In this document: positions 4,955-62,149 of the stretch, one piece after another
Layout of the letters: the number at the start of each line of letters is the position of its first letter
Position numbering within the stretch: position 1 is the first letter of the stretch
From: a virus
Virus record (IMG/VR): IMGVR_UViG_3300005077_000747
Coordinates: 23,944-87,943 of that record
Length of the DNA stretch: 64,000 nt
Strand: one strand, 5' to 3'
Translations under genes and position numbers: made by a program
The notes under the pieces: generated by a model
Database searches by the model: none
Seen by the model: the letters and a program-made list of their open reading frames with translations, nothing else
What the model was told of the DNA's origin: nothing

Positions 4955-5342
4955 GGCGGTTATCCTCCTCTACACCTTCTCTTATCTGATTTAATACTTC
5001 TATAACTATGTCCAAGTCATCCCTACAGTTAAATGCAGATGCAATTACAGAAGTAAATTTATCTAATCCAACTGAAAGGCATGATATGCGGTACCGACAA
5101 CGACTACATCTATCTAAATCATCTACGACATGTATCGCTGCATTACACAACATGCAGCGAGTGCTACATATATATGTGTATGCAGGACCAGGTGTAGAGT
5201 AATCAAAAGTAAATGTTAATTTATTGCATGTGGGGCATTGAAAGAATATATGTCTAAACACCGGTGCTGCTCTACGTAAATGTTTATGAGTGTGTTTCAT
5301 CTTTACAATCTCGAGGTAGCAACTCGAATCTGCTCTCCCCAT
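4923..5342 (-). CDS. small Zn-ribbon protein, CxxCxxR[LVI]xCL family
   Basis: CPTC...CSTRCMLC...CSRCRYRISCL. Confidence 0.6.
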   Translation of the reverse strand: MGRADSSCYLEIVKMKHTHKHLRRAAPVFRHIFFQCPTCNKLTFTFDYSTPGPAYTYICSTRCMLCNAAIHVVDDLDRCSRCRYRISCLSVGLDKFTSVIASAFNCRDDLDIVIEVLNQIREGVEEDNRLAERTNSGRN

Positions 5343-5688
5343 CCTTCAATCCTAAGCTATATTCTATCTGTCTCATTACACCATGAACCTCGAGTGTATC
5401 GAGGAGACTAAAGATAGACATCGCAATGACTGGTGAATGTGTCAAGCAATCAACCAGCCGATCTTTGCAAAGCGTGCATCTCTCGGAGCTATCTACAACC
5501 AAACATTCACCACCACAATATCTGCAGGTTGTAAAGCATTTATAATCACCCTGCTCTTCATCAACCCAGTACCAGTACCTAGAATAGGAAACACGATCAC
5601 AATTGGGACAAAGAAAGAATTCATAAGTCCTGCGTCGAAAAAAATCAAGCTCAGGTTTTGTCTTACCTGCGTCTATTTTTACGGCCAT
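5284..5688 (-). CDS. small Zn-ribbon protein, CxxCxxR[LVI]xCL family
   Basis: CPNC...CRYCGGEC...CTLCKDRLVDCLTHSP. Confidence 0.6.
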   Translation of the reverse strand: MAVKIDAGKTKPELDFFRRRTYEFFLCPNCDRVSYSRYWYWVDEEQGDYKCFTTCRYCGGECLVVDSSERCTLCKDRLVDCLTHSPVIAMSIFSLLDTLEVHGVMRQIEYSLGLKDGESRFELLPRDCKDETHS

Positions 5689-7963: not shown

Positions 7964-8257
7964 TCACTTTATTCGAACGTCTTTAACATCTTCCGATTTG
8001 AGATCTCGAATTTCATCTCCGTAGTGAAAAAGCAATCCCTCAACCACAATTCCCGGCTTTCCTGGATCCTTACACGAAAAGACTGCAGAGCTTTCTAGTA
8101 AATCCAAAAGCTCGTTCTTCGTCAATTTTTTACGCCTATCTCCACTCATCATCAACCTCCGCACAACGTCTTTAGGCACTTGTCGATTAAACTTATAAGC
8201 AGTATGCCCATGACAATCCACATAATTATATTTATGCGGCGGCTTCGCTTCCGCCAC
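7964..8257 (-). CDS. hypothetical protein
   Basis: Minus ORF 97 aa. Confidence 0.45.
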   Translation of the reverse strand: MAEAKPPHKYNYVDCHGHTAYKFNRQVPKDVVRRLMMSGDRRKKLTKNELLDLLESSAVFSCKDPGKPGIVVEGLLFHYGDEIRDLKSEDVKDVRIK

Positions 8258-8285
8258 TCCACTTCAGATCCTCTTGATTTAGGTT

Positions 8286-9659
8286 TCATTCGTCCACCTG
8301 CAGGTGTCTTGGTTTAATCTTGTATTGACGTTTGTAAAAACGAATCCGAGATTGGGAATGCTTGGCTAACATTTCATGACTGGTGTCAATGAAATCGAAA
8401 ATTCGACACTTTTCTTTTCCCTTAAACGTTCTCATCCCCCGACCTGTCCTCTGAACTAGTAGCCTTTCAGATTTCATCCCCGCAGCAATGATAACATTCT
8501 GGATGCGTTCAATGCTAACACCTTCGTCGTAAATCGCAGAAGCGATGAGCACTGGAAGAGATCCGGACTCAAATTCTTCTTTAGCTGATTCACGTTCTGG
8601 ATGATCTCCATGAATGAATCTGTGCTCGATGCCACCCAAAAGATTTGAAATTCTTTGCCCATGTGATAACCTCCAAACCAGAACAAGGACGTTCTCTCCT
8701 TTATCATATAGGTGTCGAATAATTTTCGCGATCTTTCGATTTCGGCTATCATTCTTCACTACGCCGATATCATAAACATCTTTAAACTCATACAAGATTG
8801 GAAGTTTGATCGCAGTGTCGATAGGTACTAAATAAATATCTAATGGGGCAACAACCCCGTCCTCAACAGCCTTATCATATTGATACGAGTAAATGACCGG
8901 GCCTGTAGCTGCAAAAACCGAAATAGAATCTCCTGATTCTCTGAAGGGGGTTGCCGTAAAACCATAACGATAATAGGCGTTCTCGCAAGCTTGAATGAGT
9001 TTAAAGTACTGCGACCTAGTAGAGCAATGATGGGACTCGTCAACAAGGACAGCGGATACTGATGTGATAAAGTCCTTAAGTTTATCAACTTTCGAAAAAA
9101 GCGATCCCACCATAGCCACGGTGACTCGTCTAGGGCGAACGCGATTAGCATTTATGACTCCTATCTCTTCTCCGATAAGATCGCTGCACCGTTGTACGAT
9201 GCTATCGAAAATCTCTTTCCTATGGGATAGAATAAGTACTGACTTATCAAATGTAGCCCCAAACCCCGCCTCGACATAAGTCTTTCCCATAGCAGTGATT
9301 CCTGCGATAGTTCCACGAGGATTCTCCCGCATTGCAAGAAGCGCCGCTTCTTGATGACCCGCACCATAATTCTTTACGCTATCTGGAACAGGCTGCCAGT
9401 CGATACTGGGAGGCTTGCGTAAGTCAACAATAGCCGCATCCGGGAATTGAAATAGAACTTTGTCCAAGACTCCTGTCGGAAAGATATTACTACGCTTATT
9501 GTAGAGGCTTCTAACAGATGGCGTATATCTCCCGGTGTATCTGAAAGTTTTAAAAGATTGCTGTTTGTCGACATAAGATAAAGCCTTAACCAGTTCTTCT
9601 GGAACCGGCACACCTTCTAGATCAACCTTACACCACGAATTGGTTACATAAATCTTCAA
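8286..9659 (-). CDS. SF2 DEAD/DEAH-box-like DNA/RNA helicase
   Basis: Motif I AMGKTY, motif II VDESHH, FTATP, motif VI QRTGRGMR. Confidence 0.75.
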   Translation of the reverse strand: MKIYVTNSWCKVDLEGVPVPEELVKALSYVDKQQSFKTFRYTGRYTPSVRSLYNKRSNIFPTGVLDKVLFQFPDAAIVDLRKPPSIDWQPVPDSVKNYGAGHQEAALLAMRENPRGTIAGITAMGKTYVEAGFGATFDKSVLILSHRKEIFDSIVQRCSDLIGEEIGVINANRVRPRRVTVAMVGSLFSKVDKLKDFITSVSAVLVDESHHCSTRSQYFKLIQACENAYYRYGFTATPFRESGDSISVFAATGPVIYSYQYDKAVEDGVVAPLDIYLVPIDTAIKLPILYEFKDVYDIGVVKNDSRNRKIAKIIRHLYDKGENVLVLVWRLSHGQRISNLLGGIEHRFIHGDHPERESAKEEFESGSLPVLIASAIYDEGVSIERIQNVIIAAGMKSERLLVQRTGRGMRTFKGKEKCRIFDFIDTSHEMLAKHSQSRIRFYKRQYKIKPRHLQVDE

Positions 9660-13732: not shown

Positions 13733-13883
13733 AAATCCTCCTAATCGATGGTTAAAAAAATAATAAAGTGGTTTTGTTTCATAACTTAATTTGAATTGGA
13801 AACTGAGGAGGATTCAGTAAGAGAGAAAAATTCTTGGCGGTGAGTAAGAGATTTGAACTCCTAGAGCTATTACACTCGGCGAC

Positions 13884-14141
13884 TTAGCAAGCCGCTGCCT
13901 TTACCAATTCGGCCAACTCACCACTCCATGCAACTTTTGATACAGGGGAGGCGTTTGGAAGAGCCGTGAATACGAGAACTCTCTCTCCCTTCTCCTTGCT
14001 GAACTCTTTCAAATAAAGTTTAAACCCCTCATTATGCATATACTTAATAACAGTACTATCAAGAGTCTCATTTACGCCACTCGTGTGTGAATAATGAACT
14101 GCTACGCACAACCTAACCTCTGTTTGTACTAATGAATCCAT
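13884..14141 (-). CDS. hypothetical protein
   Basis: Minus ORF 85 aa. Confidence 0.4.
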   Translation of the reverse strand: MDSLVQTEVRLCVAVHYSHTSGVNETLDSTVIKYMHNEGFKLYLKEFSKEKGERVLVFTALPNASPVSKVAWSGELAELVKAAAC

Positions 14142-14152
14142 TTAATGTCTCC

Positions 14153-14344
14153 CTAAATTTGGTATTGACAATATTGGGAGCAGTAAGCAGGCAAGCATGG
14201 AGGCCTTTCTGCTACTACACATTGTACTCTCATAGTACATTCATTACAGTTTACAACGAATGGGAAATCAAGTCCACACCTTTCACAGTGCCCGGTCAAG
14301 TAAGTAAATTTACATTCCCGGTAAGTTGTCCCACTGAGCTGCAT
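14153..14344 (-). CDS. small Zn-ribbon protein, family variant
   Basis: CERCG...CNECTMRVQCV. Confidence 0.5.
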   Translation of the reverse strand: MQLSGTTYRECKFTYLTGHCERCGLDFPFVVNCNECTMRVQCVVAERPPCLPAYCSQYCQYQI

Positions 14345-14707
14345 CTATCCTTCCTTCTCGGCCTTCAACTCCTTGAGAAAGTCATTTAATTTCGCAATCC
14401 TTGCAGCCCACAACTCAGAAATTTCTGGGGCCAAAAAATCGTAGTGGATGGGGATCAAGGGTATATTATTTCCATCAACTGAAGTCCATTCAATAAACTT
14501 GTCGAGGAAATCTGCCTTCGGTGTTGGTTCATTCTTGAGAACTTTAACAGAGATAACTTTGAGGTCGGTCTCATGTAGAAACTCTCCCCATATATTTAGC
14601 GTCCACTCTTTTACATCTTCCGCAACTCCACCTTCAAAAAAGATGCGCTCAGTGTGAACTATATCACTATTGAGCCTGAACTTCACTTCAAACCATGTCT
14701 TACCCAT
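14345..14707 (-). CDS. hypothetical protein
   Basis: Minus ORF 120 aa. Confidence 0.5.
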   Translation of the reverse strand: MGKTWFEVKFRLNSDIVHTERIFFEGGVAEDVKEWTLNIWGEFLHETDLKVISVKVLKNEPTPKADFLDKFIEWTSVDGNNIPLIPIHYDFLAPEISELWAARIAKLNDFLKELKAEKEG

Positions 14708-14721
14708 AAAAACTCCTCAGT

Positions 14722-14799
14722 TGGCACCGAGGACAGGAGTCGAACCTGCATCATAAGGTTTTGGAGACCTCATCGCTAATCCTCAGGACATGCCCCGGC
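14722..14799 (-). tRNA. tRNA-Trp (anticodon CCA)
   Basis: Reverse complement GCCGGGG...GAGGTCTCCAAAACCTT...GCAGGTTCGACTCCTGT CCTCGGTGCCA. Anticodon arm matches bacterial tRNA-Trp; D-arm is non-canonical. Confidence 0.6.
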
Positions 14800-14825
14800 T
14801 CTTGTATTAATATTTCTTGACATTC

Positions 14826-15104
14826 CTACTCCATTTTCAATACTTTACTCTCGATTAAATTGCGGGCCATAATTCTTAATCCTTCTATCTCACAAGCGAG
14901 ACATGTATAACATGATTTAGTACAATCACCATGATGAGCAGGGTATCTCTCGTGCGCCTCTAAAAACTCTTTCTTCCACTTGGTGTTGTATAAGTATTCA
15001 ACATGCTCTTCATGCTTATCCGGGTCTTCAACATAATCACCAAGCCAATCAATTACCAATAGAAGCCCAGCGATTATATCTTCGAGTTCTTCGCTCTTAC
15101 TCAA
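14826..15104 (-). CDS. hypothetical protein
   Basis: Minus ORF 92 aa. Confidence 0.45.
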   Translation of the reverse strand: MSKSEELEDIIAGLLLVIDWLGDYVEDPDKHEEHVEYLYNTKWKKEFLEAHERYPAHHGDCTKSCYTCLACEIEGLRIMARNLIESKVLKME

Positions 15105-15309
15105 GTCTTAACACTCCTCTTTCTCTCAAGCGCCTGAGTAGATAGATTTGAGATTCAACACTAATGATGATACCCATACGAATGACATTGTTGAATGCAT
15201 TCGTCGTCTTGTCATTCATCAGCTCCTCAATCGGATCGCCTCCAGTATTTCCAATTAAATCCCTAAAAGGCTCCATCCACGCAGGCATAGTCCAATTTTC
15301 CCTACTCAT
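15097..15309 (-). CDS. hypothetical protein
   Basis: Minus ORF 70 aa. Confidence 0.4.
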   Translation of the reverse strand: MSRENWTMPAWMEPFRDLIGNTGGDPIEELMNDKTTNAFNNVIRMGIIISVESQIYLLRRLRERGVLRLE

Positions 15310-15337
15310 AGCTTGTCTCCTCTTAAGCCCTTTTGAA

Positions 15338-15414
15338 TGGTGATCCTGACGGGATTCAAACCCGTGTCACCAGATTGAAAGTCTCGTATCCTAACCAAGC
15401 TAGACGACAGGATC
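15338..15414 (-). tRNA. tRNA-Glu (anticodon UUC)
   Basis: rc GATCCTG...CGAGA CTTTCAA TCTGG...ACGGGTTTGAATCCCGT CAGGATC A CCA. Acceptor and T-arm clean; one G-G mismatch in anticodon stem. Confidence 0.55.
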
Positions 15415-15419
15415 ATTAA

Positions 15420-15498
15420 TGGCAGTCTGTACGGGATTTGAACCCGCGACCTCTGACTTGACAGGCTAGCGCTCTAGGCCAAACTGAGCTAACAGACT
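15420..15498 (-). tRNA. tRNA-Asp (anticodon GUC)
   Basis: rc AGTCTGT TA GCTCAGTTTGGCCTAGAGC ... CCTGTCAA ... GGTCGCGGGTTCAAATCCCGT ACAGACT G CCA. Close to the E. coli tRNA-Asp T-arm. Confidence 0.6.
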
Positions 15499-15676
15499 GT
15501 AAATCTAAAAATGGTAGTTGGTTATAATTCAGTCCTCTGATTGGTTCAGACTGTGAGTTATTGTGGACCCCCAACCAAGGCAACCCACCTTCACTCGCTA
15601 AGGTCAATAGCCCCATCGCACTGGGTTTAAGGCCTATTACCAAGCAGGTACTATATCTTCCACTCACGAGCTTAAC

Positions 15677-15751
15677 TGGCTGTGGCGGTAGGACTCGAAC
15701 CTACAACTCTTGGATTAACAGTCCAATACTCTGCCATTGAGTCACGCCACA
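15677..15751 (-). tRNA. tRNA-Asn (anticodon GUU)
   Basis: rc TGTGGCG TG ACTCAATGGCAGAGT A TTGGA CTGTTAA TCCAA GAGTT GTAGGTTCGAGTCCTAC CGCCACA G CCA. All stems pair. Confidence 0.8.
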
Positions 15752-15752
15752 A

Positions 15753-15959
15753 TTAAAAAGAACAATCAAGATTGATGCGGTGGGAGAGCGTAACTTCTCT
15801 GTTGTAACGTGCACAATCCCCATAATCGATGTACGTCTCCCCTTCCTTGAATTCGATGATATCTAATTCGTACTCGCCGCTATATAGTGGGAGATCTCCA
15901 TGTTCTTTGAACAATGCTTGGAGCTTAGTTATAGCCGATGAAAGTAGTATTGCGGGCAC
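15753..15959 (-). CDS. hypothetical protein
   Basis: Minus ORF 68 aa between tRNAs. Confidence 0.4.
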   Translation of the reverse strand: MPAILLSSAITKLQALFKEHGDLPLYSGEYELDIIEFKEGETYIDYGDCARYNREVTLSHRINLDCSF

Positions 15960-15973
15960 TATAAACTCCTAAT

Positions 15974-16059
15974 TGGCGGAAGGTGAAGGAGTCGAACCCT
16001 CATGTTTTACCATGGTCTGGTTTTCAAGACCAGTTGCCCACCGCTGAGCACCACCTTCC
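15974..16059 (-). tRNA. tRNA-Ser (anticodon UGA), class II
   Basis: rc GGAAGGT...CTGGT CTTGAAA ACCAG + long variable arm + GGTTCGACTCC...ACCTTCC G CCA. Close to E. coli tRNA-Ser(UGA). Confidence 0.8.
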
Positions 16060-16067
16060 ACAGTATC

Positions 16068-16820
16068 TTAAATCTTTTCAATGTAAGATTCTGCAAGGGA
16101 TTTAATCTTAGTGGCCTGATCTAATCCGTTGATACATCTCCTTGCATTGTAGAAATCACATTTATCCTGCTTGATATAATCCGATATCTTCCTACCTGTA
16201 AATGCTCCGGTTAGGAAGCCATGAACAAGTATGAATAATGAAGTTTCAGGATCGAGGGCGAGATTTGGATCTTTATCAAGATCAATTCCAAGAATACGTC
16301 CATACTGCCGGTAGTTATTGTACCAAGTTAATTGCACATATCCTCTACCATAGTAAGGATAGTATCTCAGATTTGCTTTACGCCAGGCGTCAGCATTCTT
16401 ACCCTTCCAGTAAGCTTCTTCAACTGGCTTTAACGTGCCGGCAGTTTCCCAATGCGCCGTAGCAACAACATAAGCCTTCTGTGTATTCAATCTTAATCCA
16501 AATCGATCGCAGCATTTCGCGATCGATTTAATGACATCATCCTTTGTATCAAAGCAATACTCAGCATGTATGTCGCTAACGCACTGCTGCAGTTTTGTTA
16601 CGGCTTCGAGTGTTACTAATTTAGGATTCCCGAAATAATAGTCAGCACAAAACTCGGCCCAAGCTGCTCGAGTCTTCGGGCCTATATCCCCGTCAACGTT
16701 TCCGCTAGGGAGTCCCAGGAAGTTCAACGCCCTCTGAATATCTTCCAGTTCGCAGGACAGAAGATCTTCCAGTTCAGTCGTTGCAGCTAATTCTGAAATA
16801 TGACTCAAATCAATTTTCAT
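16068..16820 (-). CDS. endolysin: N-terminal peptidoglycan-binding domain + GH19 (chitinase/lysozyme-like) catalytic domain
   Basis: PG_binding_1-like LNFLGLPSGNVDGDIGPKTRAAW; GH19 signature GRGYVQLTWYNNY. Confidence 0.7.
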   Translation of the reverse strand: MKIDLSHISELAATTELEDLLSCELEDIQRALNFLGLPSGNVDGDIGPKTRAAWAEFCADYYFGNPKLVTLEAVTKLQQCVSDIHAEYCFDTKDDVIKSIAKCCDRFGLRLNTQKAYVVATAHWETAGTLKPVEEAYWKGKNADAWRKANLRYYPYYGRGYVQLTWYNNYRQYGRILGIDLDKDPNLALDPETSLFILVHGFLTGAFTGRKISDYIKQDKCDFYNARRCINGLDQATKIKSLAESYIEKI

Positions 16821-16990
16821 GTTCTCCTCCTCACCAGATCATACACCGCTCCACACTCCGGGCATATGAGCACTGGTCGCCCTTCCAATATCCTCGGCTG
16901 TAATACCCCATACCCACATGGTGGATACTGAAAATTATCACGACACGAGCAATGCAACACCCCATTCGCAAATACCGGCATACCGCTCAT
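16817..16990 (-). CDS. small Cys-containing protein translationally coupled (ATGA) to endolysin
   Basis: Hand translation MSGMPVFANGVLHCSCRDNF...LICPECGAVYDLVRRRT. Stop overlaps the endolysin ATG; start overlaps the upstream gene's stop. Confidence 0.35.
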   Translation of the reverse strand: MSGMPVFANGVLHCSCRDNFQYPPCGYGVLQPRILEGRPVLICPECGAVYDLVRRRT

Positions 16991-17127
16991 GGTTCCTTAC
17001 CATCCTTATTTAAAACTCGTCTGAGCCACTCAATACACTCTGGGCATCCAGCTAAAGAGCAAACATCACACTTATACCAAGACTCAGAAAACTTCTGCAT
17101 TCCTCTTGAGCATCTCGGGCATAACAT
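16987..17127 (-). CDS. small Zn-ribbon protein (46 aa)
   Basis: MLCPRCSRGMQKFSESWYKCDVCSLAGCPEC... Longer ORF-track call 16987..17322 overlaps tRNA-Tyr, so the start is taken at internal Met. Confidence 0.45.
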   Translation of the reverse strand: MLCPRCSRGMQKFSESWYKCDVCSLAGCPECIEWLRRVLNKDGKEP

Positions 17128-17135
17128 TTTATCAG

Positions 17136-17222
17136 TGGTGGGGAAGGAAGGATTCGAACCTCCACGCTCATCAGCGACTACTGGGTTACAGCCAGGTGCG
17201 TTAGCCTTTCCGCCACTTCCCC
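17136..17222 (-). tRNA. tRNA-Tyr (anticodon GUA), class II with long variable arm
   Basis: rc GGGGAAG...CTGTAAC...long variable arm...GGTTCGAATCCTTCC TTCCCC A CCA. Bacterial-type Tyr tRNA. Confidence 0.8.
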
Positions 17223-17999: not shown

Positions 18000-18311
18000 T
18001 TAAGTAGTGGTAGTTTTATTACTACGGAGAGTTCCGTAGGTGAAAAAGGTTAAGATTAATGCCAGTATCAAAATAGGTTTGACAAGCCATAATGAAAGGA
18101 CTTGCCATCCTAACGCCGACGTAGAGAGACCTAAAACAATAGCTCCACAAATAACCAGCCACATTGAGTAGACGAAACCGAAAAGCTTGAGTTTACCTGC
18201 AACTGTGTCTGAGTGGAGTCCGTGTTCTCGTATCCTCTTCCATAACCGAGCCGCGACCCAAGCCGCTGCAGCGGCTATCGCGAGCCCCATAAATATAGCG
18301 ATAAGTTTCAT
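18000..18311 (-). CDS. membrane protein (3 predicted TM helices; holin candidate)
   Basis: Hydrophobic stretches IAIFMGLAIAAAAAWVAA, FGFVYSMWLVICGAIVLGL, ILILALILTFF. Confidence 0.5.
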   Translation of the reverse strand: MKLIAIFMGLAIAAAAAWVAARLWKRIREHGLHSDTVAGKLKLFGFVYSMWLVICGAIVLGLSTSALGWQVLSLWLVKPILILALILTFFTYGTLRSNKTTTT

Positions 18312-18320: not shown

Positions 18321-19457
18321 CTAACCCCACAAGCGGCTCTTTAAGGTAATGAACGTCTCATGATCCAGGATTTTCTGTGCAAGCTGTTGGGAGTGTCCTT
18401 GAATCATCCGCAGGAAGAGAGCGTTAACTTCGTCCTGCTCAACGCGCACTAAGAACTTGCGCAAGTTGGAAACTTGATCTGAGGAGGGACCTCCGGGTAA
18501 CCGAGTGATATGAGTGACCAACCGAATGTAAGTTAAGTAAATAAGATCGGGACGATCGAGCATCTGGCTGAATACGTCTTCCCGAATTTTGCCTCCGAGA
18601 ATTTCTTCAGGCTGTAAAATCTTGCTCTGGGTTTTGAGGTTGGTAAAGAAGGATGCCCTGATGAGGTCACCAACGATAGCATCCAAGCGAATCCTGGCGA
18701 TGTCACTATCCAAGTTAAATCCACGAAACTGGATGGTATTAAGAGCCTGAGATGCAAATTCCGCAGTTCTAGGCGATATAGCCGTGGTCCCATTGCCTGA
18801 GCTCTTTTTCTTTGAATCGTCGGGGATGTCGACAAACATATCCGGGTAAGCTTTACAGAAGGCTGTCCATTCGGGATTGAAGCCATTCATGATCGCGTAC
18901 TCAATAAATTCATCTGTATCGAATTTAACCTTGATGGTCTGAATACGATCAGATTGAGCTTTATCAAGAGCGCGAGCCGCATACTCTTTGGAGCCCGCAG
19001 GATTGCCAGTAAGAACAATCCTTACTTCGTTCTCTAAGGGCATCGCGCCGACTTTGTAGTCCAGGAAGATACTCATCATGCTTTGAAGCACTTGAGCCGG
19101 CACCCGGTTGAAGTCATCAAAACTCAATATGACTTTACGGTCAGGCGATTTACTGTTCCGGATTTCAGTGGCGTAATTGTTTGCTTGCAAAGCCCAGAAG
19201 ACGGGGGCATAAACCGTGTGCCCGTTATCTTTCATAGGCATACCTAAAATGTCACCTGGCTCCGTCACAGCTGCGGCTGTATTGACTTCCACTAAAGGAT
19301 AGTCACGCTTCTCGCAAAACTGCCGCACGATAGAGCTTTTCCCAACTCCCGCAGGGCCCTCAATATTGCAAGTAACCCGCCGAGGACCTTCTGAGGTGAT
19401 GAGATCTAAAAGTTGGTCTACTTGTTTCAACGTTACGTCCAAGTGCTTCCTCCTCAA
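18321..19457 (-). CDS. MoxR-like AAA ATPase (copy 1)
   Basis: Walker A GPAGVGKSS, Walker B ILSFDDFNR, VLTGNP sensor; 45-50% identical by eye to 59860..60960. Confidence 0.7.
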   Translation of the reverse strand: MRRKHLDVTLKQVDQLLDLITSEGPRRVTCNIEGPAGVGKSSIVRQFCEKRDYPLVEVNTAAAVTEPGDILGMPMKDNGHTVYAPVFWALQANNYATEIRNSKSPDRKVILSFDDFNRVPAQVLQSMMSIFLDYKVGAMPLENEVRIVLTGNPAGSKEYAARALDKAQSDRIQTIKVKFDTDEFIEYAIMNGFNPEWTAFCKAYPDMFVDIPDDSKKKSSGNGTTAISPRTAEFASQALNTIQFRGFNLDSDIARIRLDAIVGDLIRASFFTNLKTQSKILQPEEILGGKIREDVFSQMLDRPDLIYLTYIRLVTHITRLPGGPSSDQVSNLRKFLVRVEQDEVNALFLRMIQGHSQQLAQKILDHETFITLKSRLWG

Positions 19458-19774
19458 GGTTTTGGATTTTATATTTAGGCATGCGCCTGGGTTCTCATTA
19501 AAACAGGTTGAGTGAGAACCGGGGCTTACTCACCGTGACATTCTCACTCAACCTTCCTCGGAGTGGTTTTTAATGCAAAAAACCCTCTGCCACTAAAACA
19601 CGCTTTTTAGTTAGTCGCAACTGTTACTCTTATCGAGAAGTAACCAACGCCGCTTGATGATGCTCAAAACCGGGAAAGCATTCTATTCTAACGGGAATAG
19701 TGACGTCTATTTTATGGAGATAGATCACCCCTACCATTACCGCAGGTAGGCCGCCTCTGAGGTACTAGCCGGCA
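19458..19774 (-). other. 317-bp structured non-coding spacer with perfect 14-bp inverted repeat
   Basis: AGGTTGAGTGAGAA-N22-TTCTCACTCAACCT plus GGTTTTT/AAAAACC hairpin; no ORF; absent from paralogous module 2. Confidence 0.4.
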
Positions 19775-20035
19775 TTACCTCATACTTTTAAATTTCAAGA
19801 CTGCAATTGGGCGAGTTAAACAATCGACTCGTTGTCGACAATATTCACACCAATCACCGGGCAGTCTAAATTCTGTTAAGCAGTTATGACAAATATGCAA
19901 ACAAAGCACTGAAGACTGTTCACCCGGAGCTGAGCCCAAAGAATTCATATAGAGCATACGCATCAATCTAGTATTCGGATAAACAGATGTCCAGCCGCAG
20001 ATTGAGCATTTAGATCCTTCAGATGTTTGATGCAT
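19775..20035 (-). CDS. small Zn-ribbon protein, CxxCxxR[LVI]xCL family
   Basis: CSICG...CHNC...CEYCRQRVDCLTRPIAV. Confidence 0.6.
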   Translation of the reverse strand: MHQTSEGSKCSICGWTSVYPNTRLMRMLYMNSLGSAPGEQSSVLCLHICHNCLTEFRLPGDWCEYCRQRVDCLTRPIAVLKFKSMR

Positions 20036-20040
20036 TCAAA

Positions 20041-21273
20041 CTAATACTCCATTGTTCTCGAATTTAACTTCATTCGAATTGTGTGACCCCAAGGCATATT
20101 ATCAGGAGCATCCGGTGTAAGTACCCAAACTATTTCTGGATCTGGGGGCCCGTGATGAAGGTCTCCTACATAGCCATCTGTAAGACAGATAATCTGTTCA
20201 CACTCCGGATAGTTTTCAGCAATATGAGCGAATGATGTCTGAAACATTGTACCGCCTCCCCCTTTAACCTTTGGAGGCGTTCCTTCATACACATATTCTC
20301 GTTGTAATTTTGCATCAACTTCGAATATGTGGATTAAGTATCCAATCCTTGCTAATTGCTCCACAACATTAAAACAGGCTCCGATTTCTTTAGGGCCCAT
20401 AGATCCTGAAGTATCAACTATTAAAAACAGCTTCCCTAGGTAGTCATGAATAACCCCCGGGATTGTATCATACCTCTTCGAGAATCTTCTCTTAGTGAAA
20501 GTCCATTCTTCCGAAAGTTCTGCTCTTTGGGCGGCTCGCAGGAATTCAAGTTTCCAATCGACTTCGGCTCTTACTTTATACAACTCTCCAAGAGCTCCCC
20601 CAGGATCTGTACCTGCAGCTTTAGCCGTAGCATACAATCTCCCGGAAAGCTCTTCAGCTTCAGTCTCTGAAACCTTTATTTCCCACTTATGATTCTGGCC
20701 GGCACCGTGTCTCTTGTCTTTATTGTCTCCTTTACCATCACCTTTACCATCACCAGCTTTGCCTTGCTGTTTTTTATTGTTCCCATTATTTCCACCCCCG
20801 TTTCCCTCTTTTTGGTGCTGCTGTTTCATTAATTGGTGAAGGTACCACTCGTAAGTACGATCCCAATCAAGGTTGAAGCTGGATGGAGTAAGTGCATGCT
20901 CAGGAAGGGGGAGGCTAGAGTGGCGCTGGAGGAAGCTATTAACAGCTAAATCCATTGCAAGATTTTTCACATCGGTCAACTGCTTCCCAGCTCTTGTAGG
21001 GTGCTGGAATAGAAAGTGTGCAACTTCGTGCAGCATGATAAATCGCTGATTGGTATAACTAATTTCCTTGTCAAAGAATTTGTCACCCAATCTAACCGTC
21101 AAACATTCATCAACAAGCAAACCAGCCGTCTCAACTTCTTTTGACCGAACGAAGCGACAACAAGCAAATACATGCCCAAAGAAAGGAAACTCTTTCGTAA
21201 GCCGCATTGAAATACGCCTCACTGCGAGACGTTCTTGATGGTTTAAAGCAGTGTCCGCCATTCTCCCTCCCAA
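20041..21273 (-). CDS. VWA-domain protein with N-terminal HExxH metallopeptidase-like domain (DUF2201-like; copy 1)
   Basis: HEVAHFLFQH; MIDAS-like DTSGSM; paralogue of 60971..62149. Confidence 0.65.
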   Translation of the reverse strand: MGGRMADTALNHQERLAVRRISMRLTKEFPFFGHVFACCRFVRSKEVETAGLLVDECLTVRLGDKFFDKEISYTNQRFIMLHEVAHFLFQHPTRAGKQLTDVKNLAMDLAVNSFLQRHSSLPLPEHALTPSSFNLDWDRTYEWYLHQLMKQQHQKEGNGGGNNGNNKKQQGKAGDGKGDGKGDNKDKRHGAGQNHKWEIKVSETEAEELSGRLYATAKAAGTDPGGALGELYKVRAEVDWKLEFLRAAQRAELSEEWTFTKRRFSKRYDTIPGVIHDYLGKLFLIVDTSGSMGPKEIGACFNVVEQLARIGYLIHIFEVDAKLQREYVYEGTPPKVKGGGGTMFQTSFAHIAENYPECEQIICLTDGYVGDLHHGPPDPEIVWVLTPDAPDNMPWGHTIRMKLNSRTMEY

Positions 21274-21281: not shown

Positions 21282-21962
21282 TTATACGCCTCTCATATCA
21301 ACGGGCCATATCAGTTTGTGCAACTGGATTTGCAGCCGCGCAAAAGGCATTTTACTCAACACCCAGTCAGCTAGCTCTGGAAGAAGGATCTCATCCCAAA
21401 TTGGTGAGATCAATACCTCATTCTGAGGTGTTACAATAGGATACTGAGCGCATACATCCTGCGCGAACTCAAGATCTTCTTTAGTTCCAACTACAAATTT
21501 AAATTGATCTCCAGGTGTTGGTGCCGCTAGGTTAGTCCACTTTATATGCTCAGACATTCCTGATGATGGTGTTTTAATATCTACTACACAAACCAAGTTG
21601 GCTGGAGACTTTTTAAAAACCGCTAGTGATTGTGACCCATTGGTTTCAATTAGAACCGTCTTGTACTGTATTAATTTTTGACATGCTTCGACAAGTTCTT
21701 CCAGCTGTAATAAAGGTTCCCCGCCCGTAAATTCAATCACCTGGGCAGGGGAGTTGATACATTGGCTGATAATATCTTTTACACCCACTTCAGTACCTGA
21801 GTTCTTATCTTGAGCGTATTGCGTATCACAATATGTACAGGCTAAGTTGCACCCAGCAAGCCGCACAAAAAAGCAAGGTCTTCCGGCATACGTCGACTCA
21901 CCTTGTATCGAATAAAATGTTTCAACGATTTTCAATCTCCCCCTCCTTGCAAAATTGATCAC
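21282..21962 (-). CDS. queE: 7-carboxy-7-deazaguanine synthase (radical SAM)
   Basis: IQGEST..GRPCFFVRLAGCNLACTYCDT, TGGEP, ETNG, C-terminal W/RGV; matches QueE architecture. Confidence 0.75.
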   Translation of the reverse strand: MINFARRGRLKIVETFYSIQGESTYAGRPCFFVRLAGCNLACTYCDTQYAQDKNSGTEVGVKDIISQCINSPAQVIEFTGGEPLLQLEELVEACQKLIQYKTVLIETNGSQSLAVFKKSPANLVCVVDIKTPSSGMSEHIKWTNLAAPTPGDQFKFVVGTKEDLEFAQDVCAQYPIVTPQNEVLISPIWDEILLPELADWVLSKMPFARLQIQLHKLIWPVDMRGV

Positions 21963-22245
21963 TTCTAATTTTAGTTGATGCTACTCTTACAGTATAAGCT
22001 AAACATGTGACTCTATCAGCACACTTTGAACATCGAGACTTCCTGTCTACTCCTACAAATGTGCAATTACACATAACGCATTGAATTTTACAATTAAAGC
22101 AAGTGAAATCCTGGGCTGCGGCTATTTGCTGACCACAGCCCGGACATTCATAAATCCAATAGAACTGCCAATGACCTGCATTTTTAACTCGGGGATACAA
22201 TTCAATCATAGGGATCCCCCAGCATGAAATGCCTGGAACTCTCAT
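21922..22245 (-). CDS. small Zn-ribbon protein, CxxCxxR[LVI]xCL family
   Basis: CPGCG...CFNC...CSKCADRVTCLAYTV. Confidence 0.6.
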   Translation of the reverse strand: MRVPGISCWGIPMIELYPRVKNAGHWQFYWIYECPGCGQQIAAAQDFTCFNCKIQCVMCNCTFVGVDRKSRCSKCADRVTCLAYTVRVASTKIRSDQFCKEGEIENR

Positions 22246-22247
22246 CC

Positions 22248-22817
22248 TTACTCCTTGATATAGCCATTAATAGTGAGTTCCTCCTTAAACCTTCTTGCCG
22301 CACCTAGTACAGCTTTTCCATAAGAGCCCTTAAATTCTGTATTGTACCTACGTAGTCTCTTAAGCTGGAGGGTTTTATTATCTCCCACCCCCCTTAAGGC
22401 TCGGGCACCTACCTCGATATTAATTCGAGGGTCATCGATCCGCCACTTACTTAGTGATCCATAATGAATCGCCATTGGACCAAAATATGTCCCATCACAA
22501 ATTATTTGTCTCCTCTTGTTTCGAACTGGCTTACCAATTGGGCCATATCTAAATTCAGATACTTCATGGCCCCACCTAAGTTGACGGCTTTCAATATAAG
22601 CAACAGCAACAAGAAAGGACGGATCGACATTCCACCGCTTTGCGGCATCGACCATAACCTTTTTAGCCTCTTCAAATGTGAGAGGTTTATCAGTCGGCTT
22701 CATACGTAACAAGAAGAGCTCTGCATCATAGTATGCAGAGCTTATCTTGGCAAATCCAAATTGTGGAAGGCATACAACCATCATCATCATTACAACGAGC
22801 AAAGACTTTAATTTCAT
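22248..22817 (-). CDS. secreted SLT-like lytic transglycosylase / lysozyme-like protein
   Basis: N-terminal signal-like MKLKSLLVVMMMMVVCLPQFGFA; LVAVAYIESR catalytic-Glu context. Confidence 0.5.
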   Translation of the reverse strand: MKLKSLLVVMMMMVVCLPQFGFAKISSAYYDAELFLLRMKPTDKPLTFEEAKKVMVDAAKRWNVDPSFLVAVAYIESRQLRWGHEVSEFRYGPIGKPVRNKRRQIICDGTYFGPMAIHYGSLSKWRIDDPRINIEVGARALRGVGDNKTLQLKRLRRYNTEFKGSYGKAVLGAARRFKEELTINGYIKE

Positions 22818-23606: not shown

Positions 23607-24182
23607 TTATCCCATCTTAGAAGTTTCGTTCAAATCTTCAACTGGAACTAAACATCTATCCCGAGCGGCTTCCAAATGGACAATAGCGTCAGTGAGTGAT
23701 TGATGCTCATTCGGAAACAGCTCCGAAAAGCCTGGAACTTTTTTAGACACTCTTGAGAGACATCCACAAAGTGTTGAAAGAAGCTTGCTTAGGATAGATC
23801 TAAAGTGAGTCCCATTAAAGAAGGCGAGATCAAATTGATCTGCCTCAGTAATCAAAAACGTTGTTTGTGCTTTAAGAACAGTGCTTGTTAAAGTACCTAC
23901 AGGTGGGCAGGCATCTCCTCGAATAGGAATACACGTTACGTGAAATGTATACTCTGTCTTGCATTTAAAACATTTAAACCTTCGCGCATTCCAGCCGGTT
24001 CTTGCAAAACCTACAAGTGGGACTCTGATATGAGTCCCACAATCAGGACAAACAAAATTGACTCGAAACTGCCCACCCCGATTCCCCTTCCTTCTTCCAT
24101 TGTTGTAAGAAGCGTGTGAGTTCATTTTTAGAAAATACCTTTCTAGGCTGGAACAATCGGGGCAAGGTTTGGGAATCTGCAA
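23607..24182 (-). CDS. Cys-rich hypothetical protein (191 aa)
   Basis: CPDC, CPDCG, CFKCK, C..C pairs. Confidence 0.5.
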   Translation of the reverse strand: MQIPKPCPDCSSLERYFLKMNSHASYNNGRRKGNRGGQFRVNFVCPDCGTHIRVPLVGFARTGWNARRFKCFKCKTEYTFHVTCIPIRGDACPPVGTLTSTVLKAQTTFLITEADQFDLAFFNGTHFRSILSKLLSTLCGCLSRVSKKVPGFSELFPNEHQSLTDAIVHLEAARDRCLVPVEDLNETSKMG

Positions 24183-24895
24183 CCACTTCTAATATCTTGG
24201 ATGGTCCAATTCCGAAGCCAGGCTAATTGGAAGTGCATTGGATCAAATGGACTATTCCAAATTCCCCCCCATTCAAACCCTTGCTCCGCAAAGCATATAA
24301 CAAATTCTGGAGTCATGTCCCACTCAGATGCATTGTACGGATTGGTGGCTGCATTCAAATCGACTGCCATTCCATATGAATGGCATGATAAAAATTTCCC
24401 CGACTTTGCGTTTCGTACAACATAACAACCATCAAAAGTCTTTAACTGCTTTGCTATACCCCTATTAATTACACTCCTAATCGCAGCCTTGAATCTCTGT
24501 TTTATAGAATAATGACCCCAAAAACCGAACTTCGAAGAACCTAATCCCTTTACATGACTCAAATCACTTTTGAACTCGGAGAGGTCGATAAATATAATGT
24601 TTGAACCCTTGAAACTTGGTTCAAGAGGCGACCCAAAAGTACTTAAAAGACTGGACTGATAGATAATCTTGGGAACTTCAGGCTGTGGAAAGCTACTATT
24701 AAATAAGGCTTTCCATGTAAACTCCCCTACTACACCATCTGCACCTAACTTTTGGTCTTTCTGAAAATTAAAAACTGCAATGTAAGTTCCATCGCTAAAA
24801 TCACCGTCAACAATTTTTTTATAATAGCCTAACTCTTTAAGCCGTGACTGTACTTGGCTGACGTACTCCCCCTTCGAACCGTACTTCAGTAGCAT
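24143..24895 (-). CDS. endolysin: peptidoglycan-binding domain + M15-family (VanY/L-Ala-D-Glu peptidase-like) domain
   Basis: PG_binding_1-like YGSKGEYVSQVQSRLKELGY; SCHSYGMAVDL (HxxGxAxD) and DPMHFQ (DxxHF). Confidence 0.65.
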   Translation of the reverse strand: MLLKYGSKGEYVSQVQSRLKELGYYKKIVDGDFSDGTYIAVFNFQKDQKLGADGVVGEFTWKALFNSSFPQPEVPKIIYQSSLLSTFGSPLEPSFKGSNIIFIDLSEFKSDLSHVKGLGSSKFGFWGHYSIKQRFKAAIRSVINRGIAKQLKTFDGCYVVRNAKSGKFLSCHSYGMAVDLNAATNPYNASEWDMTPEFVICFAEQGFEWGGIWNSPFDPMHFQLAWLRNWTIQDIRSGCRFPNLAPIVPA

Positions 24896-50170: not shown

Positions 50171-50344
50171 CCTCCTCTATTTTGTAGTAAAGAATAATAT
50201 CGTACCGCTGCTTATTAACCCCATACGTATTCTGTATGCGTGATGATCAATAAATTCTAACGCCTCCGATGACAATGTTACTGAAGGGATAACAAGACAC
50301 TCGAGTCTCTCTTTACACTCCTTACAACGTTCATTTGCGTTCAT
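50171..50344 (-). CDS. small protein with N-terminal family motif (MNANERCKECKERLECL...)
   Basis: Hand-translated, 57 aa; below the ORF-track threshold. Confidence 0.35.
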
Positions 50345-53463: not shown

Positions 53464-53469
53464 CTTAGT

Positions 53470-59859: not shown

Positions 59860-60960
59860 TTATGCACCGTACACTCTTTTGCGAATCTCTTTCATGACTT
59901 CGCCCGTGAGAATCTTGAGGGCAAGGTCTTGGGGAAGGGACTTCAGGAATACGAACGTGAGCTCATCGCTCTCGTGTTTGAGCATGAACTGTTGGACGTT
60001 CGTGACTGCCTCCTTACCGAGCCCCTTCAGTTCATGCAGCTTGGATGAGAGCCGGGAGTAAGTAAGGTTGATGATATCGGGCTTCTTCTTCAACGCTTCA
60101 AACTTTGTCGCAGAGTACTTGCCTGAGATGATCTCTTCAGGGAGAATAACCTGTTCCTGGGTCTTGACGCAGGTGACGAAGGAGGTACGTATAGCGGCAC
60201 CCACCCGAGCATCAAGTCTCAACTGAGCGATCTCGGACAAGATGGACTGTCCGCCATCCTTAATGCACCGCAGAGCTTGGTTGGCGAAGTCGCAGGTTCT
60301 TGGAGAGGCACCTTCACCATCAGTCCCGACCACTTCTTTGTAGAGATTGAGGAACGCAGTCCATTCAGGGACCCAATTATTCTTCAGGGCGTACTGCATA
60401 AAGACATTGAAGTCCAGACGGACGTGAAGGGTCTCCATCCTCTCTACTTGTGCAAAGTCAAGGCCACGAGTGGAGTACTTATCGGAGGTGCTGGGATTGG
60501 AAGTCAGCACGACTCTTACATCAGGATGGAGATCAAGAGCGCCGACTTTGTAGTCCAGGAAGACGGGCATGAGGGATTGAAGGATCTGAGCGGGTACACG
60601 GTTGTAGTCATCTAACAAGAGGATGACTCTTTTGAAGTTCCCGGAAGCTGCAGCCTCGTTGGCTTCCACAGCCCAATACGGAGCAGCATAAATAGTCCGA
60701 GCACCCGAATCCCCATTTGCGGTCTTGGGCATACCAGCGATGTCACCGGGCTCCGTGATAACCGCAGCAGTAGGAACGAAGATCACCTTGTAGGCCGGAT
60801 CTTCCTCAAAGCTCCGAATGATGGAGGTCTTTCCAATACCTGCACCGCCTTCTAAGTTAACGGTTACTCGGCGAGGACCCTCGTTCAGCATCATTCGAGT
60901 AAGTTCCATGGCCTGATTCAAATCTACTTCCGCATACCTCTCATTAACACCTTTACTCAT
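59860..60960 (-). CDS. MoxR-like AAA ATPase (copy 2)
   Basis: Walker A GGAGIGKTS, Walker B ILLLDDYNR, VLTSNP; paralogue of 18321..19457. Confidence 0.7.
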   Translation of the reverse strand: MSKGVNERYAEVDLNQAMELTRMMLNEGPRRVTVNLEGGAGIGKTSIIRSFEEDPAYKVIFVPTAAVITEPGDIAGMPKTANGDSGARTIYAAPYWAVEANEAAASGNFKRVILLLDDYNRVPAQILQSLMPVFLDYKVGALDLHPDVRVVLTSNPSTSDKYSTRGLDFAQVERMETLHVRLDFNVFMQYALKNNWVPEWTAFLNLYKEVVGTDGEGASPRTCDFANQALRCIKDGGQSILSEIAQLRLDARVGAAIRTSFVTCVKTQEQVILPEEIISGKYSATKFEALKKKPDIINLTYSRLSSKLHELKGLGKEAVTNVQQFMLKHESDELTFVFLKSLPQDLALKILTGEVMKEIRKRVYGA

Positions 60961-60970: not shown

Positions 60971-62149
60971 TTATTTGTTTACTCCGCGCATACGGAGAGT
61001 CGTTGCCCAGTCAGGCAGGTTAGCATGGCTATCTTCAGTGAGGACGATCAATACCGACTTCAGGCCAGCAGGAATGCCTCCGCTCACATCAAAGATGTAC
61101 CCATCAGTCAGGATAATCACTTCTTGCATCTCAGGGAAACCTTCTTGGACTTTCACAATGGCTTCGCGAAACATTGTCCCGCCACCTCCATGAACTTTCG
61201 GAGGTGTGCCGGTGTAGATATAACTATCATGAAGTGCAGCATCAACTTCATGAACCCAGATGCGGTAGCCCATAAGATGAAGTTTATGTATGATGCTGAA
61301 ACAGGCACCGATCTCTTTATTAGACATCGACCCTGAAGTATCTACCATGATGTGAACCTCCCCCTGATAATCATGCTTAGCTCCAGGAGGTATAGAATAT
61401 CTTCGGGAGGTATGACGCTTACAGAAACGCCAGTCTTCGCTTTGCTCCGATGACTGAGCATAAGTAATGAACTGGTCTTTCCAATCGACGTCAGCAGTAG
61501 TTTTGTATAGATCTCGAAGTGCTCCACTGGGAGCCGTCCCCGCCATCTTGCATGCTCCCTCAAAGAGGTTGCGCGCAAGTCCCTCAGCTTCTATCTCAGG
61601 GACGTCGACCTTCCAGAAGTGCTCCGGAACTTCAACTTCGAATTCCTCATCCGTCTGACTGCCACCTTTCGAAGGATCTCCCTTCCCATCCCCTTTGACC
61701 TTAACTTTAATCTTCTTAGTAGGGAGGTTTGAAAGGTACCACTCATACGTTTTGTTCTTATCCAACTTGAACTGAGACGGCATAAGAACAAATTCCGGTT
61801 CGTGGATGTGGCAGGCATCTGAAAGGAAGGAGTTGGTTGCTAAGTCCATGGCGATGTTATTAATCATATGGGACCTATCAGCCCCCGCATTCCTAGCTCG
61901 CCAAGGGTGCTTAAACAAGAAGTGGGCAATCTCGTGCATAAGAATGTACCTCTGATCGGCTTCCTTATACTCAAAGAACTCATCAGGGTTAATTACGATG
62001 CACAAGCTTTCACGGACAATCATTCCCGCAGGTGCTGGGAGATCCTTTTCAAAAGACCAAGTACACACTGCGAGGACGTGACCGAAGAAAGGTCGTTGCT
62101 CTAGAAGATTCATTACGAGCCTACGAATCTTCTTTCGATCCTCACTCAT
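60971..62149 (-). CDS. VWA-domain + HExxH (DUF2201-like) protein (copy 2)
   Basis: HEIAHFLFKH; DTSGSM; paralogue of 20041..21273; immediately precedes MoxR-2. Confidence 0.65.
   Translation of the reverse strand: MSEDRKKIRRLVMNLLEQRPFFGHVLAVCTWSFEKDLPAPAGMIVRESLCIVINPDEFFEYKEADQRYILMHEIAHFLFKHPWRARNAGADRSHMINNIAMDLATNSFLSDACHIHEPEFVLMPSQFKLDKNKTYEWYLSNLPTKKIKVKVKGDGKGDPSKGGSQTDEEFEVEVPEHFWKVDVPEIEAEGLARNLFEGACKMAGTAPSGALRDLYKTTADVDWKDQFITYAQSSEQSEDWRFCKRHTSRRYSIPPGAKHDYQGEVHIMVDTSGSMSNKEIGACFSIIHKLHLMGYRIWVHEVDAALHDSYIYTGTPPKVHGGGGTMFREAIVKVQEGFPEMQEVIILTDGYIFDVSGGIPAGLKSVLIVLTEDSHANLPDWATTLRMRGVNK

Follow-up and report, generated by a model that had tools for sequence, protein, structure and literature searches.

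Two pairs of genes on the minus strand of an uncultured large phage, each coupling a VWA protein to an AAA+ ATPase, raise the question of what kind of system they represent and in what sense one phage may hold it twice. In the window, a stretch of 64,000 nucleotides, the four genes are arranged as two VWA→AAA pairs, module 1 (18321-21261) and module 2 (59860-62149), with features listed in Table 1. Sequence comparison indicates that in these pairs one two-gene cassette, of the coliphage N4 gp24/gp25 type, is present twice, in copies that diverged long ago. Since the genes are of the same kind as the N4 pair, they constitute an already known type, and what is unusual here is only their duplication and their gene context. 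The traits derived in this lineage are the VWA→AAA order, a Walker B motif ending in DD, the duplication itself, and a conserved QueE-like radical-SAM gene lying directly upstream of modules of the copy-1 type only.

All four open reading frames described in an initial annotation of this DNA were recovered on the minus strand at the positions given there, while two of the start codons most probably lie elsewhere. For VWA1 the likeliest start is the ATG at 21261, which is preceded by the SD sequence GGAGGGAG and matches the database protein P0001, the TTG at 21273 being less likely; for AAA1 it is the TTG at 19442, behind a perfect AGGAGG SD, and not 19457. In module 2 the stop of VWA2 and the start of AAA2 are separated by 10 nt, and AAA2 has GGGAGG as its SD.

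Table 1. Coordinates of the two modules, their sequence motifs and their neighbouring features in the window.
Feature	Position	Strand	Description
VWA1	20041..21261	-	406 aa; zincin-like HExxHxxxxH domain (aa 1-250), disordered loop, minimal VWA/MIDAS domain (aa 276-396); HEVAHFLFQH at 21001-21030, DTSGSM at 20398-20415
VWA1 loop	20692..20838	-	aa 142-190; disordered, G/N/K/D/Q-rich; GDGKGDGKGDNKDK at 20713-20754
AAA1	18321..19442	-	373-aa AAA+ ATPase, AAA_5 class, partner of VWA1; identical to P0092; Walker A 19335-19358, Walker B DD 19104-19124, sensor-1 N 18999-19013, AQxxR 18945-18959
VWA2	60971..62149	-	392-aa paralogue of VWA1, same architecture; identical to P0015; HEIAHFLFKH at 61907-61936, DTSGSM at 61325-61342
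VWA2 loop	61622..61732	-	aa 140-176; equivalent of the VWA1 loop, with complementary charged strands KIKVKVK / EFEVEV; KGDGKGDPSKGG at 61661-61696
AAA2	59860..60960	-	366-aa paralogue of AAA1; identical to P0103; Walker A 60826-60849, Walker B DD 60598-60618
QueE-like radical-SAM gene	21282..21962	-	directly upstream of VWA1; phrog_2076 6.6e-40; CX3CX2C present
Cys-rich ORF	19775..20035	-	86 aa, between VWA1 and AAA1; CxxC...CxxCxxRxxCL family expanded in the window
Non-coding spacer	19443..19774	-	332 nt upstream of AAA1; 14-bp perfect inverted repeat at ~19505-19554
Predicted membrane protein	18000..18311	-	103 aa; starts 9 nt after the AAA1 stop

The initial annotation had taken the two pairs for diverged paralogous modules, and the protein comparisons bear this out, AAA1 and AAA2 being 43% identical over their full length (E 2e-106) and VWA1 and VWA2 44% identical (E 1e-110). 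At the DNA level, by contrast with the near-identity against which that annotation had cautioned, the alignable part of the two modules is confined to three patches of 43-77 nt at ~79% identity, and an assembly duplication is ruled out because almost no DNA similarity exists between them. The clade structures of the AAA and VWA proteins are congruent, which indicates divergence as whole modules. Possession of two copies had been called unusual, and none of ~200 other loci or contigs examined carries two; likewise, IMG/VR, the JGI metagenomes and the GTDB genomes, which do not contain the contig of the window itself, yielded no second contig with both copies, and look-ups of the exact proteins VWA1 and P0001 gave no match. 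Each copy has orthologues at 56-79% identity and in collinear contexts in other samples. Orthologues collinear with both modules are present in one assembly and in one sequencing run, and it is probable that a relative, too, has the two copies; run SRR25508642 and assembly GCA_040960625.1 represent relatives.

The VWA proteins combine two domains that Pfam recognizes. VWA1 matches DUF2201_N with 60.7 bits (cutoff 23.2) and DUF2201 with 41.8 bits (cutoff 26.4), and VWA2 matches DUF2201_N at 8.3e-8 and 32.6 bits (cutoff 23.2); its DUF2201 match (4.4e-5, 24.0 bits) is marginally under the gathering cutoff of 26.4, and this region is 44% identical to that of VWA1. The fusion of an HExxH domain to a VWA/MIDAS domain proposed earlier is thereby substantiated. 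The motifs DTSGSM, GGGGT and LTDG are present in both proteins, and the residues of a complete MIDAS, D283, S285, S287, T338 and D362 (VWA1 numbering), are invariant in an alignment of 17 homologues. H78, E79 and H82 of the HExxH motif are invariant in the same alignment and are found also in the distant homologues P0023-P0055. Two candidate third metal ligands, H87 (HExxHxxxxH) and D104 (NxAxDxAxNS), are both invariant among the 17 homologues, and structure modelling gives the N-terminal domain a zincin fold; the initial annotation had considered that this domain might lack further metal ligands, for which H87 and D104 are available as candidates. The VWA domain adopts a minimal VWA (Rossmann-like) fold of ~125 residues, and the fold matches of the VWA protein include NorD-VWA and MDN1-MIDAS; searches of the PDB with its single sequence and with a profile gave no significant match. 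The low-complexity loops noted earlier in both VWA proteins are real. That of VWA1 has a pLDDT below 50 in two models, and the region is hypervariable among homologues, four of which carry two CxxCxGxG motifs there.

By sequence, the ATPases can be assigned to the AAA_5 (dynein/midasin/MoxR-like) class. AAA1 matches Pfam AAA_5 at 3.3e-6, the match of AAA2 is not significant (E 0.16), and neither protein matches AAA_3; the bpMoxR model reaches only E 0.21 and the CbbQ model E 0.83. The only significant solved relatives of the ATPase profile are the AAA modules of midasin (5e-7), while a single-sequence PDB search with AAA1 returned EF-G matches only, which we regard as spurious. When the family profiles were aligned by hhalign to the RavA-ViaA system of E. 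coli, the ATPase profile gave a probability of 22.8% over 18 columns covering Walker A only, and the VWA profile aligned to ViaA over the MIDAS motif only, for which reason direct kinship to RavA/ViaA was rejected. The earlier designation of these proteins as MoxR therefore holds insofar as an AAA+ partner is paired with a VWA protein, and is overstated as regards MoxR itself. Walker A (GxAGxGK[ST]), sensor-1 N147 and AQxxR166 are invariant in the ATPase alignment. Walker B is DD in clades A-C, and DE in 103 of the 128 AAA partners of the wider family; with DD in place of DE, the proteins could be weak ATPases.

Sequence profiles place both genes among the homologues of coliphage N4 gp24 and gp25, a relationship that the initial annotation missed. 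AAA1 and AAA2 match phrog_1297 at 5.6e-42 and 3.5e-38, as does N4 gp24 at 2.1e-136, and VWA1 and VWA2 match phrog_1314 at 3e-43 and 4.5e-35, as does N4 gp25 at 1.3e-135. In profile comparisons by hhalign, both alignments are nearly full length, that of the AAA profile with gp24 extending over 259 columns (98.2%, E 3.9e-14) and that of the VWA profile with gp25 over 336 columns (98.0%, E 1.5e-13). The N4 genes, a pair without known function, are among the 14 core genes of N4-like phages and belong to the middle transcripts (PMC4193335; PMC2784036). The label attached to phrog_1314, "HNH endonuclease", looks wrong, no HNH Pfam match being obtained at E<=1, and it leads to the mis-annotation of these genes by automated pipelines. 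In the wider family, a same-strand AAA gene lies within 5 kb in 151 of 214 VWA homologues, in the order AAA→VWA at 124 of these paired loci and VWA→AAA at 27; both modules of the window show a close operonic pairing of the two genes. Among 39 diverse non-redundant loci, whose 150 flanking ORFs were screened with Pfam, no neighbour of the cassette recurred more than three times. The cassette is widespread and self-contained. Full-length structural homologues exist in many cultured phages, and the pair recurs in cyanophages, in crAss-like viruses and in the Bacillus jumbo phage PBS1, as well as in numerous bacterial genomes and MAGs.

The gene contexts of the two modules differ, as the initial annotation had advised checking. 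The QueE-like gene is co-oriented with VWA1 and ends 20 nt before its start, whereas copy 2 has no such neighbour and stands alone. The match of this gene to TIGR03963 (2.3e-58, 197.5 bits) is below the NCBIfam equivalog cutoff of 260.1. Neither QueC, QueD, FolE nor DpdA was detected in 29 other ORFs of the window searched with PHROGs and/or Pfam (one also with NCBIfam), and no other queuosine-pathway gene or annotated client lies near either module, the neighbours being ORFans. All 13 clade A/B loci for which upstream sequence is available have a radical-SAM gene ahead of VWA, and none of the clade C loci does; in clade A/B, the order radical-SAM, 0-2 small ORFs, VWA and AAA has been kept despite protein identities of ~42-52% between the clades and a heavy turnover of flanking ORFs. 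Module 1 is further distinguished by an insert of ~580 bp that separates VWA1 from AAA1 and holds the Cys-rich ORF and the non-coding spacer, while in the relatives L001-L005 the VWA-AAA gap is 4-14 nt and in L210 a different ORF, of 123 aa, occupies that place. The spacer matches no Rfam family of structured RNA at E<=1 and has no repeat elsewhere in the window. Downstream, the predicted 103-aa membrane protein is possibly co-translated with AAA1; it is not conserved in relatives, BLAST at 1e-5 giving no match in either L001 or L003. Scans for promoters and terminators around both modules gave counts equal to the shuffled expectation.

Taken as a whole, these observations are best explained, with moderate confidence on our part, by two N4-type cassettes that combine client remodelling with sub-functionalisation, a mechanism drawn by analogy from midasin, CbbQ/CbbO, NorQ/NorD and RavA/ViaA. 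A specific client protein would be captured by the MIDAS metal through one of its acidic residues; the ATPase ring, docked to the VWA partner, would use ATP to remodel or extract this client, and the zincin domain would then either cleave it or hold it via the metal site; putative proteolysis is possible by the same reasoning. The change from Glu to Asp in Walker B may mean slow, switch-like hydrolysis. Sub-functionalisation would have given the two copies different clients or separate stages of infection, which we infer only from their context and the retention of both. The role of chaperone for metal-centre insertion suggested in the initial annotation stands as an analogy.

Several other explanations deserve consideration. 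It is unlikely that the cassettes act in host takeover or counter-defence as ATP-regulated proteases cleaving host proteins (e.g. those of defence or stress), with two copies broadening the targets, as the core status of the pair in N4-like phages and its middle-phase expression beside genes of replication and nucleotide metabolism fit a housekeeping role better than that of an accessory gene in an arms race, no match to a PADLOC defence or anti-defence system was found, and likeness to ArdC is no stronger than to many other zincins. We consider slightly less likely an assembly chaperone for the virion or the replication complex that works without proteolysis, its HExxH motif being only structural or metal-binding. 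Such a function would follow the MoxR-vWA chaperone paradigm and the example of the Acidianus two-tailed virus (ATV), whose MoxR-like p618 and VWA protein p892 form a virus-encoded pair with a proposed chaperone role in tail development (PMC7159879), and it would agree with the weak structural match to ATV ORF892 (E 3.5e-4, 272 columns) and with the place of the pair in the N4-like core; yet the catalytic-type Glu of HExxH is strictly invariant across distant homologues, which suggests catalysis, and the family spans phages with very different virion types as well as bacteria.

Dedicated metalloenzymes are served by each of the pairs NorQ/NorD, CoxD/CoxE and CbbQ/CbbO. Accordingly one may imagine a chaperone of cofactor maturation in which module 1 matures or activates the QueE-like enzyme, by Fe-S or metal insertion or by remodelling, and module 2 serves another client. 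The conserved adjacency in clade A/B loci, the short gap and the presence of NorD-VWA among the structural matches speak in its favour. We nevertheless find it doubtful, ranking it just below both preceding explanations, since the wider family, N4 included, has no radical-SAM neighbour, clade C modules also lack one, descent-based synteny within one phage lineage accounts equally well for the adjacency, and an insertase is not expected to carry a peptidase-like domain. Lower again we would place the fuller proposal that both cassettes are client-specific maturases, copy 1 having the QueE-like protein as an obligate partner through cofactor or metal loading or through activating cleavage; if true, it would provide the first functional handle on N4 gp24/gp25 and make the paralogues a natural experiment in client specificity. 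Very improbable, finally, is a reading in which one of the copies lacks a function of its own, whether as a decaying or redundant duplicate or as a xenologue captured recently. Large clade B relatives do have a single copy on contigs of 144-189 kb, and GC3 differs between module 1 (0.38 and 0.52) and module 2 (0.50 and 0.59), but both modules retain intact reading frames and every invariant motif, each has collinear orthologues in other samples, and one relative appears to keep both. With two diverged copies retained in this lineage, one of them always tied to a radical-SAM gene, contrasts in client, in timing and in motif changes such as Walker B DD may guide experiments across the family.

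Compared with known systems, the pair resembles midasin/Rea1, which has six AAA_5 modules and a C-terminal MIDAS domain, and the RavA-ViaA, CbbQ-CbbO, NorQ-NorD and CoxD-CoxE pairs in that an AAA_5-type ATPase is combined with a MIDAS-bearing VWA domain, and differs from all of them in that its minimal VWA domain is fused to a zincin-like domain that they lack. With M48/M56-type and "minigluzincin" peptidases (BlaR1, ZMPSTE24, selecase, abylysin), Wss1/Spartan and ArdC there is no significant sequence similarity; unlike those zincins, the domain described here has HExxHxxxxH followed by NxAxDxAxNS, includes additional helices as well as a disordered loop, and is not embedded in a membrane. ATV p892 belongs to an archaeal virus and has a different VWA architecture, with 892 aa and without DUF2201_N. 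In bacteria and phages, proteins with Pfam DUF2201_N (PF13203, putative metallopeptidase) and DUF2201 (PF09967, VWA-like) usually have an AAA ATPase as their neighbour, and their HExxH and MIDAS motifs are likewise conserved here, although the clades of the window depart from most of that family in the order of the genes and in the state of Walker B. The closest parallel is the gp24 AAA ATPase and gp25 vWFA protein of N4 (Schitoviridae), with the same PHROGs, the same domain architecture and adjacent same-strand genes, at an identity of only about 23-25%. The phage itself is not N4-like: a sigma factor, a DnaB-type helicase and tRNAs are present, and the window showed no vRNAP. Whereas the single copy of N4 runs AAA→VWA and has the canonical Walker B DE, the two copies of this phage run VWA→AAA and have DD in Walker B.

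All four genes of the two modules described in the initial annotation were found in the window, on the minus strand, where a VWA and an AAA gene form module 1 (VWA1 and AAA1) and a second pair forms module 2 (VWA2 and AAA2). As proposed there, the modules are diverged paralogues, AAA1 and AAA2 aligning over their full length at 43% identity (E = 2e-106) and VWA1 and VWA2 at 44% (E = 1e-110). At the DNA level just three patches of 43-77 nt align, at ~79% identity, which argues that the copies are old paralogues and led us to reject an assembly artefact as the source of the second one. Two starts were moved to the most likely codons: VWA1 from 21273 to an ATG at 21261 (with GGAGGGAG ahead of it and the stop of a QueE-like radical-SAM gene 20 nt before), and AAA1 from 19457 to a TTG at 19442 preceded by AGGAGG, in agreement with the database proteins P0001 and P0092, respectively.

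The VWA/AAA gap is 10 nt in module 2 and 4-14 nt in close relatives, and in module 1 an 86-aa Cys-rich ORF (19775-20035) intervenes, together with a non-coding spacer of 332 nt that had no Rfam match and no further copy within the window. Because the corresponding junction in a relative (locus L210) is occupied by another ORF, of 123 aa and unrelated, the junction may be an insertion hot-spot. The Cys-rich ORF belongs to a massively expanded family of small proteins, counting 32 coding-strand (minus) ORFs between 4122 and 63740 versus none with the motif on the opposite strand of the window; another member lies just upstream of the QueE-like gene. Further CxxC pairs usually precede the family motif, Pfam returned weak generic zinc-ribbon matches only, and related contigs carry orthologues.

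Features of the window discussed in the text
Feature	Coordinates	Strand	Basis or remark
AAA1	18321-19442	-	module 1
VWA1	20041-21261	-	module 1
AAA2	59860-60960	-	module 2
VWA2	60971-62149	-	module 2
QueE-like radical-SAM gene	21282-21962	-	adjoins VWA1
Non-coding spacer, 332 nt, in module 1	19443-19774	-	perfect 14-bp inverted repeat, ~19505-19554
Cys-rich family (examples)	4926-5345, 19775-20035, 21925-22266, 37376-37651, 50180-50410, 53003-53236, 53227-53469, 53885-54109, 58778-59260	-	motif C-x2-C-x2,3-R-x2-C-[LMI]
Cluster of 7 tRNAs	13835-17222	-	Ser-GCT, Trp, Glu, Asp, Asn, Ser-TGA, Tyr
Endolysin-like gene with PG-binding motif	16068-16820	-	clear cell-wall hydrolase
M15_4 peptidase with PG_binding_1	24143-24895	-	clear cell-wall hydrolase
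Secreted protein	22248-22817	-	candidate third cell-wall hydrolase, by eye alone
Major Vault Protein-like protein, 853 aa	30705-33266	-	Pfam MVP_shoulder 3.6e-30
Third AAA ATPase, 613 aa	41473-43314	-	classical AAA PF00004 1.1e-13; phrog_10440 2e-124
Small paralogous family	62781-63362, 56207-56572, 47842-48279	-	several match ORFs of L128, a relative's locus

The genes, mostly small, form a one-strand array on the minus strand. The window also encodes seven tRNAs, endolysins, a sigma factor, DnaB-type and SNF2-type helicases and the QueE-like gene, and is therefore part of a large phage genome. The tRNA cluster lies between module 1 and the replication-gene region; mechanically listed ORFs overlying tRNA-Tyr (17136-17222) are spurious because of the tRNA beneath them. 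The two clear cell-wall hydrolase genes share one region, and the secreted candidate had no PHROG match. The third AAA ATPase is unrelated to AAA1 and AAA2. Several members of the small paralogous family match L128 ORFs 8243-8779 and 14377-14742 at 30-60% identity, and in the 62781-63362 protein 'NTNEEANTMTENTNPET' is repeated in tandem. The 853-aa protein has weaker Vault_3 and Band_7 Pfam matches, aligns over residues ~480-830 with residues ~460-824 of the solved Major Vault Protein (phmmer, E = 3e-13) and had no PHROG match. A phage-encoded homologue of this eukaryotic protein is unexpected.

The HExxH plus VWA architecture read initially from the sequence was borne out, both VWA proteins matching Pfam DUF2201_N (a putative metallopeptidase) and DUF2201 (VWA-like), the latter just below the Pfam cutoff in VWA2. 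HExxH (H78/E79/H82), H87, D104 and the full MIDAS set (D283-x-S285-x-S287, T338, D362) are invariant in an alignment of 17 homologues, and the N-domain, modelled separately (residues 1-252; pLDDT 81.5, pTM 0.75), structurally matched zincin-type metallohydrolases only. The low-complexity segment also noted is a disordered, hypervariable G/K/D/Q-rich loop (aa 142-190 in VWA1), whose base bears two DnaJ-type CxxCxGxG motifs in four homologues; these are absent from the VWA1 and VWA2 loops, the latter having complementary charged strands in their place.

Among the AAA homologues, Walker A, the sensor-1 Asn and the AQxxR arginine are all invariant. Walker B is DD, not DE, in AAA1 and AAA2; DE occurs in 103 of the 128 AAA partners of the wider family, and beyond the window's clades DD is limited to a few others. 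AAA1 matches Pfam AAA_5 (3e-6) and AAA2 has no significant Pfam match, the sole significant solved match of the family profile is the midasin AAA modules (5e-7), and only Walker A aligns with E. coli RavA and only the MIDAS motif with ViaA, so the label MoxR is justified only in the sense of the broad AAA_5/MoxR-like class.

In a survey of 208 fetched loci plus the window, 151 of 214 VWA homologues had an AAA of this type on their own strand and no more than 5 kb away, ordered AAA→VWA in 124 and VWA→AAA in 27, all the window's clades being among the latter. When 150 ORFs flanking 39 non-redundant loci were scanned with Pfam, no partner proved recurrent (maximum 3 occurrences), which makes the cassette a self-contained unit.

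The VWA homologues form four clades, namely A (VWA1), its sister B, C (VWA2) and, further out, D. The AAA homologues group likewise by identity, which indicates that whole modules diverged jointly. Inverted order and the Walker B DD are common to clades A-C, whereas clade D retains AAA→VWA and DE, which would place the split of the window's copies after both changes and before that of A and B. Carrying two copies is unusual, as first supposed: no other two-copy contig was found in IMG/VR, JGI metagenomes or GTDB genomes, and contigs with a clade B module, 144-189 kb long, showed one copy. However, a single assembly (GCA_040960625.1) has a clade A module (L210; orthologues of VWA1 71% and of AAA1 79%) on one contig and a clade C module (L128; orthologues of VWA2 68% and of AAA2 68%) on another, and both modules occur in one run (SRR25508642), each collinear with its counterpart in the window and similarly diverged from it; very probably some relative carries both, judging from co-assembly and equal divergence rather than a single contig. 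In DYKD01000004.1 (L133 / L131), a 90-kb sulfidic-cave contig assigned to a 'Brevinema andersonii' MAG, the genes next to a clade B module are of phage type (PhageMetallopep, endolysin), and the contig probably belongs to a phage and was mis-binned.

By analogy with midasin, CbbQ/CbbO, NorQ/NorD and RavA/ViaA (AAA+/VWA systems reviewed in PMC7159879), we propose that the MIDAS site would capture an acidic residue of a client protein, the AAA ring would remodel the client using ATP, and the zincin domain would cleave or hold it. The parts are shown, the workings are inferred, and the initial interpretation was partly right. Catalysis by the N-domain is predicted, being favoured by the invariant HExxH glutamate, and an assembly chaperone without proteolysis seems quite unlikely; that the cassette is a host-directed protease is unlikely.

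The pairs differ in their neighbours, a point that the initial annotation had proposed to check. The QueE-like gene lies directly upstream of VWA at all 13 clade A/B loci whose sequence extends far enough and is absent there at every clade C locus, module 2 being surrounded by a run of ORFans. The QueE-like gene falls short of the QueE equivalog cutoffs, and no other 7-deazaguanine pathway genes occurred among 29 other window ORFs scanned. A module 1 acting as dedicated maturase for the radical-SAM enzyme is distinctly improbable. Sub-functionalisation of the modules is favoured, because both copies keep all motifs and have different conserved contexts, and simple redundancy of one copy is very improbable.

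In both modules the AAA genes fall in PHROG 1297 and the VWA genes in PHROG 1314. The label of the latter, 'HNH endonuclease', was rejected, no HNH Pfam model matching VWA1 or VWA2; phrog_1314 members, N4 gp25 included, are DUF2201_N plus VWA proteins, so that the label appears to be a misannotation with which automated phage annotators would misname genes of this type. Coliphage N4 gp24 and gp25 match the same PHROGs (2e-136 and 1e-135) and the window's family profiles over nearly their full length (98% hhalign probability). They are two of 14 core genes common to N4-like phages (PMC4193335), with middle-phase transcripts and function given as unknown (PMC4193335; PMC2784036), and an N4-like Delftia phage has the same domains (PMC5735904). 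Foldseek against viral structures identified full-length homologues in cyanophage S-TIM5, Bacillus phage PBS1, N4-like Pseudomonas, Klebsiella and Ruegeria phages and a crAss-like virus, and many bacterial genomes and MAGs hold related genes. The window genes are new, divergent members of this known, uncharacterised phage family, unusual only in their duplication and in the link to a radical-SAM gene.
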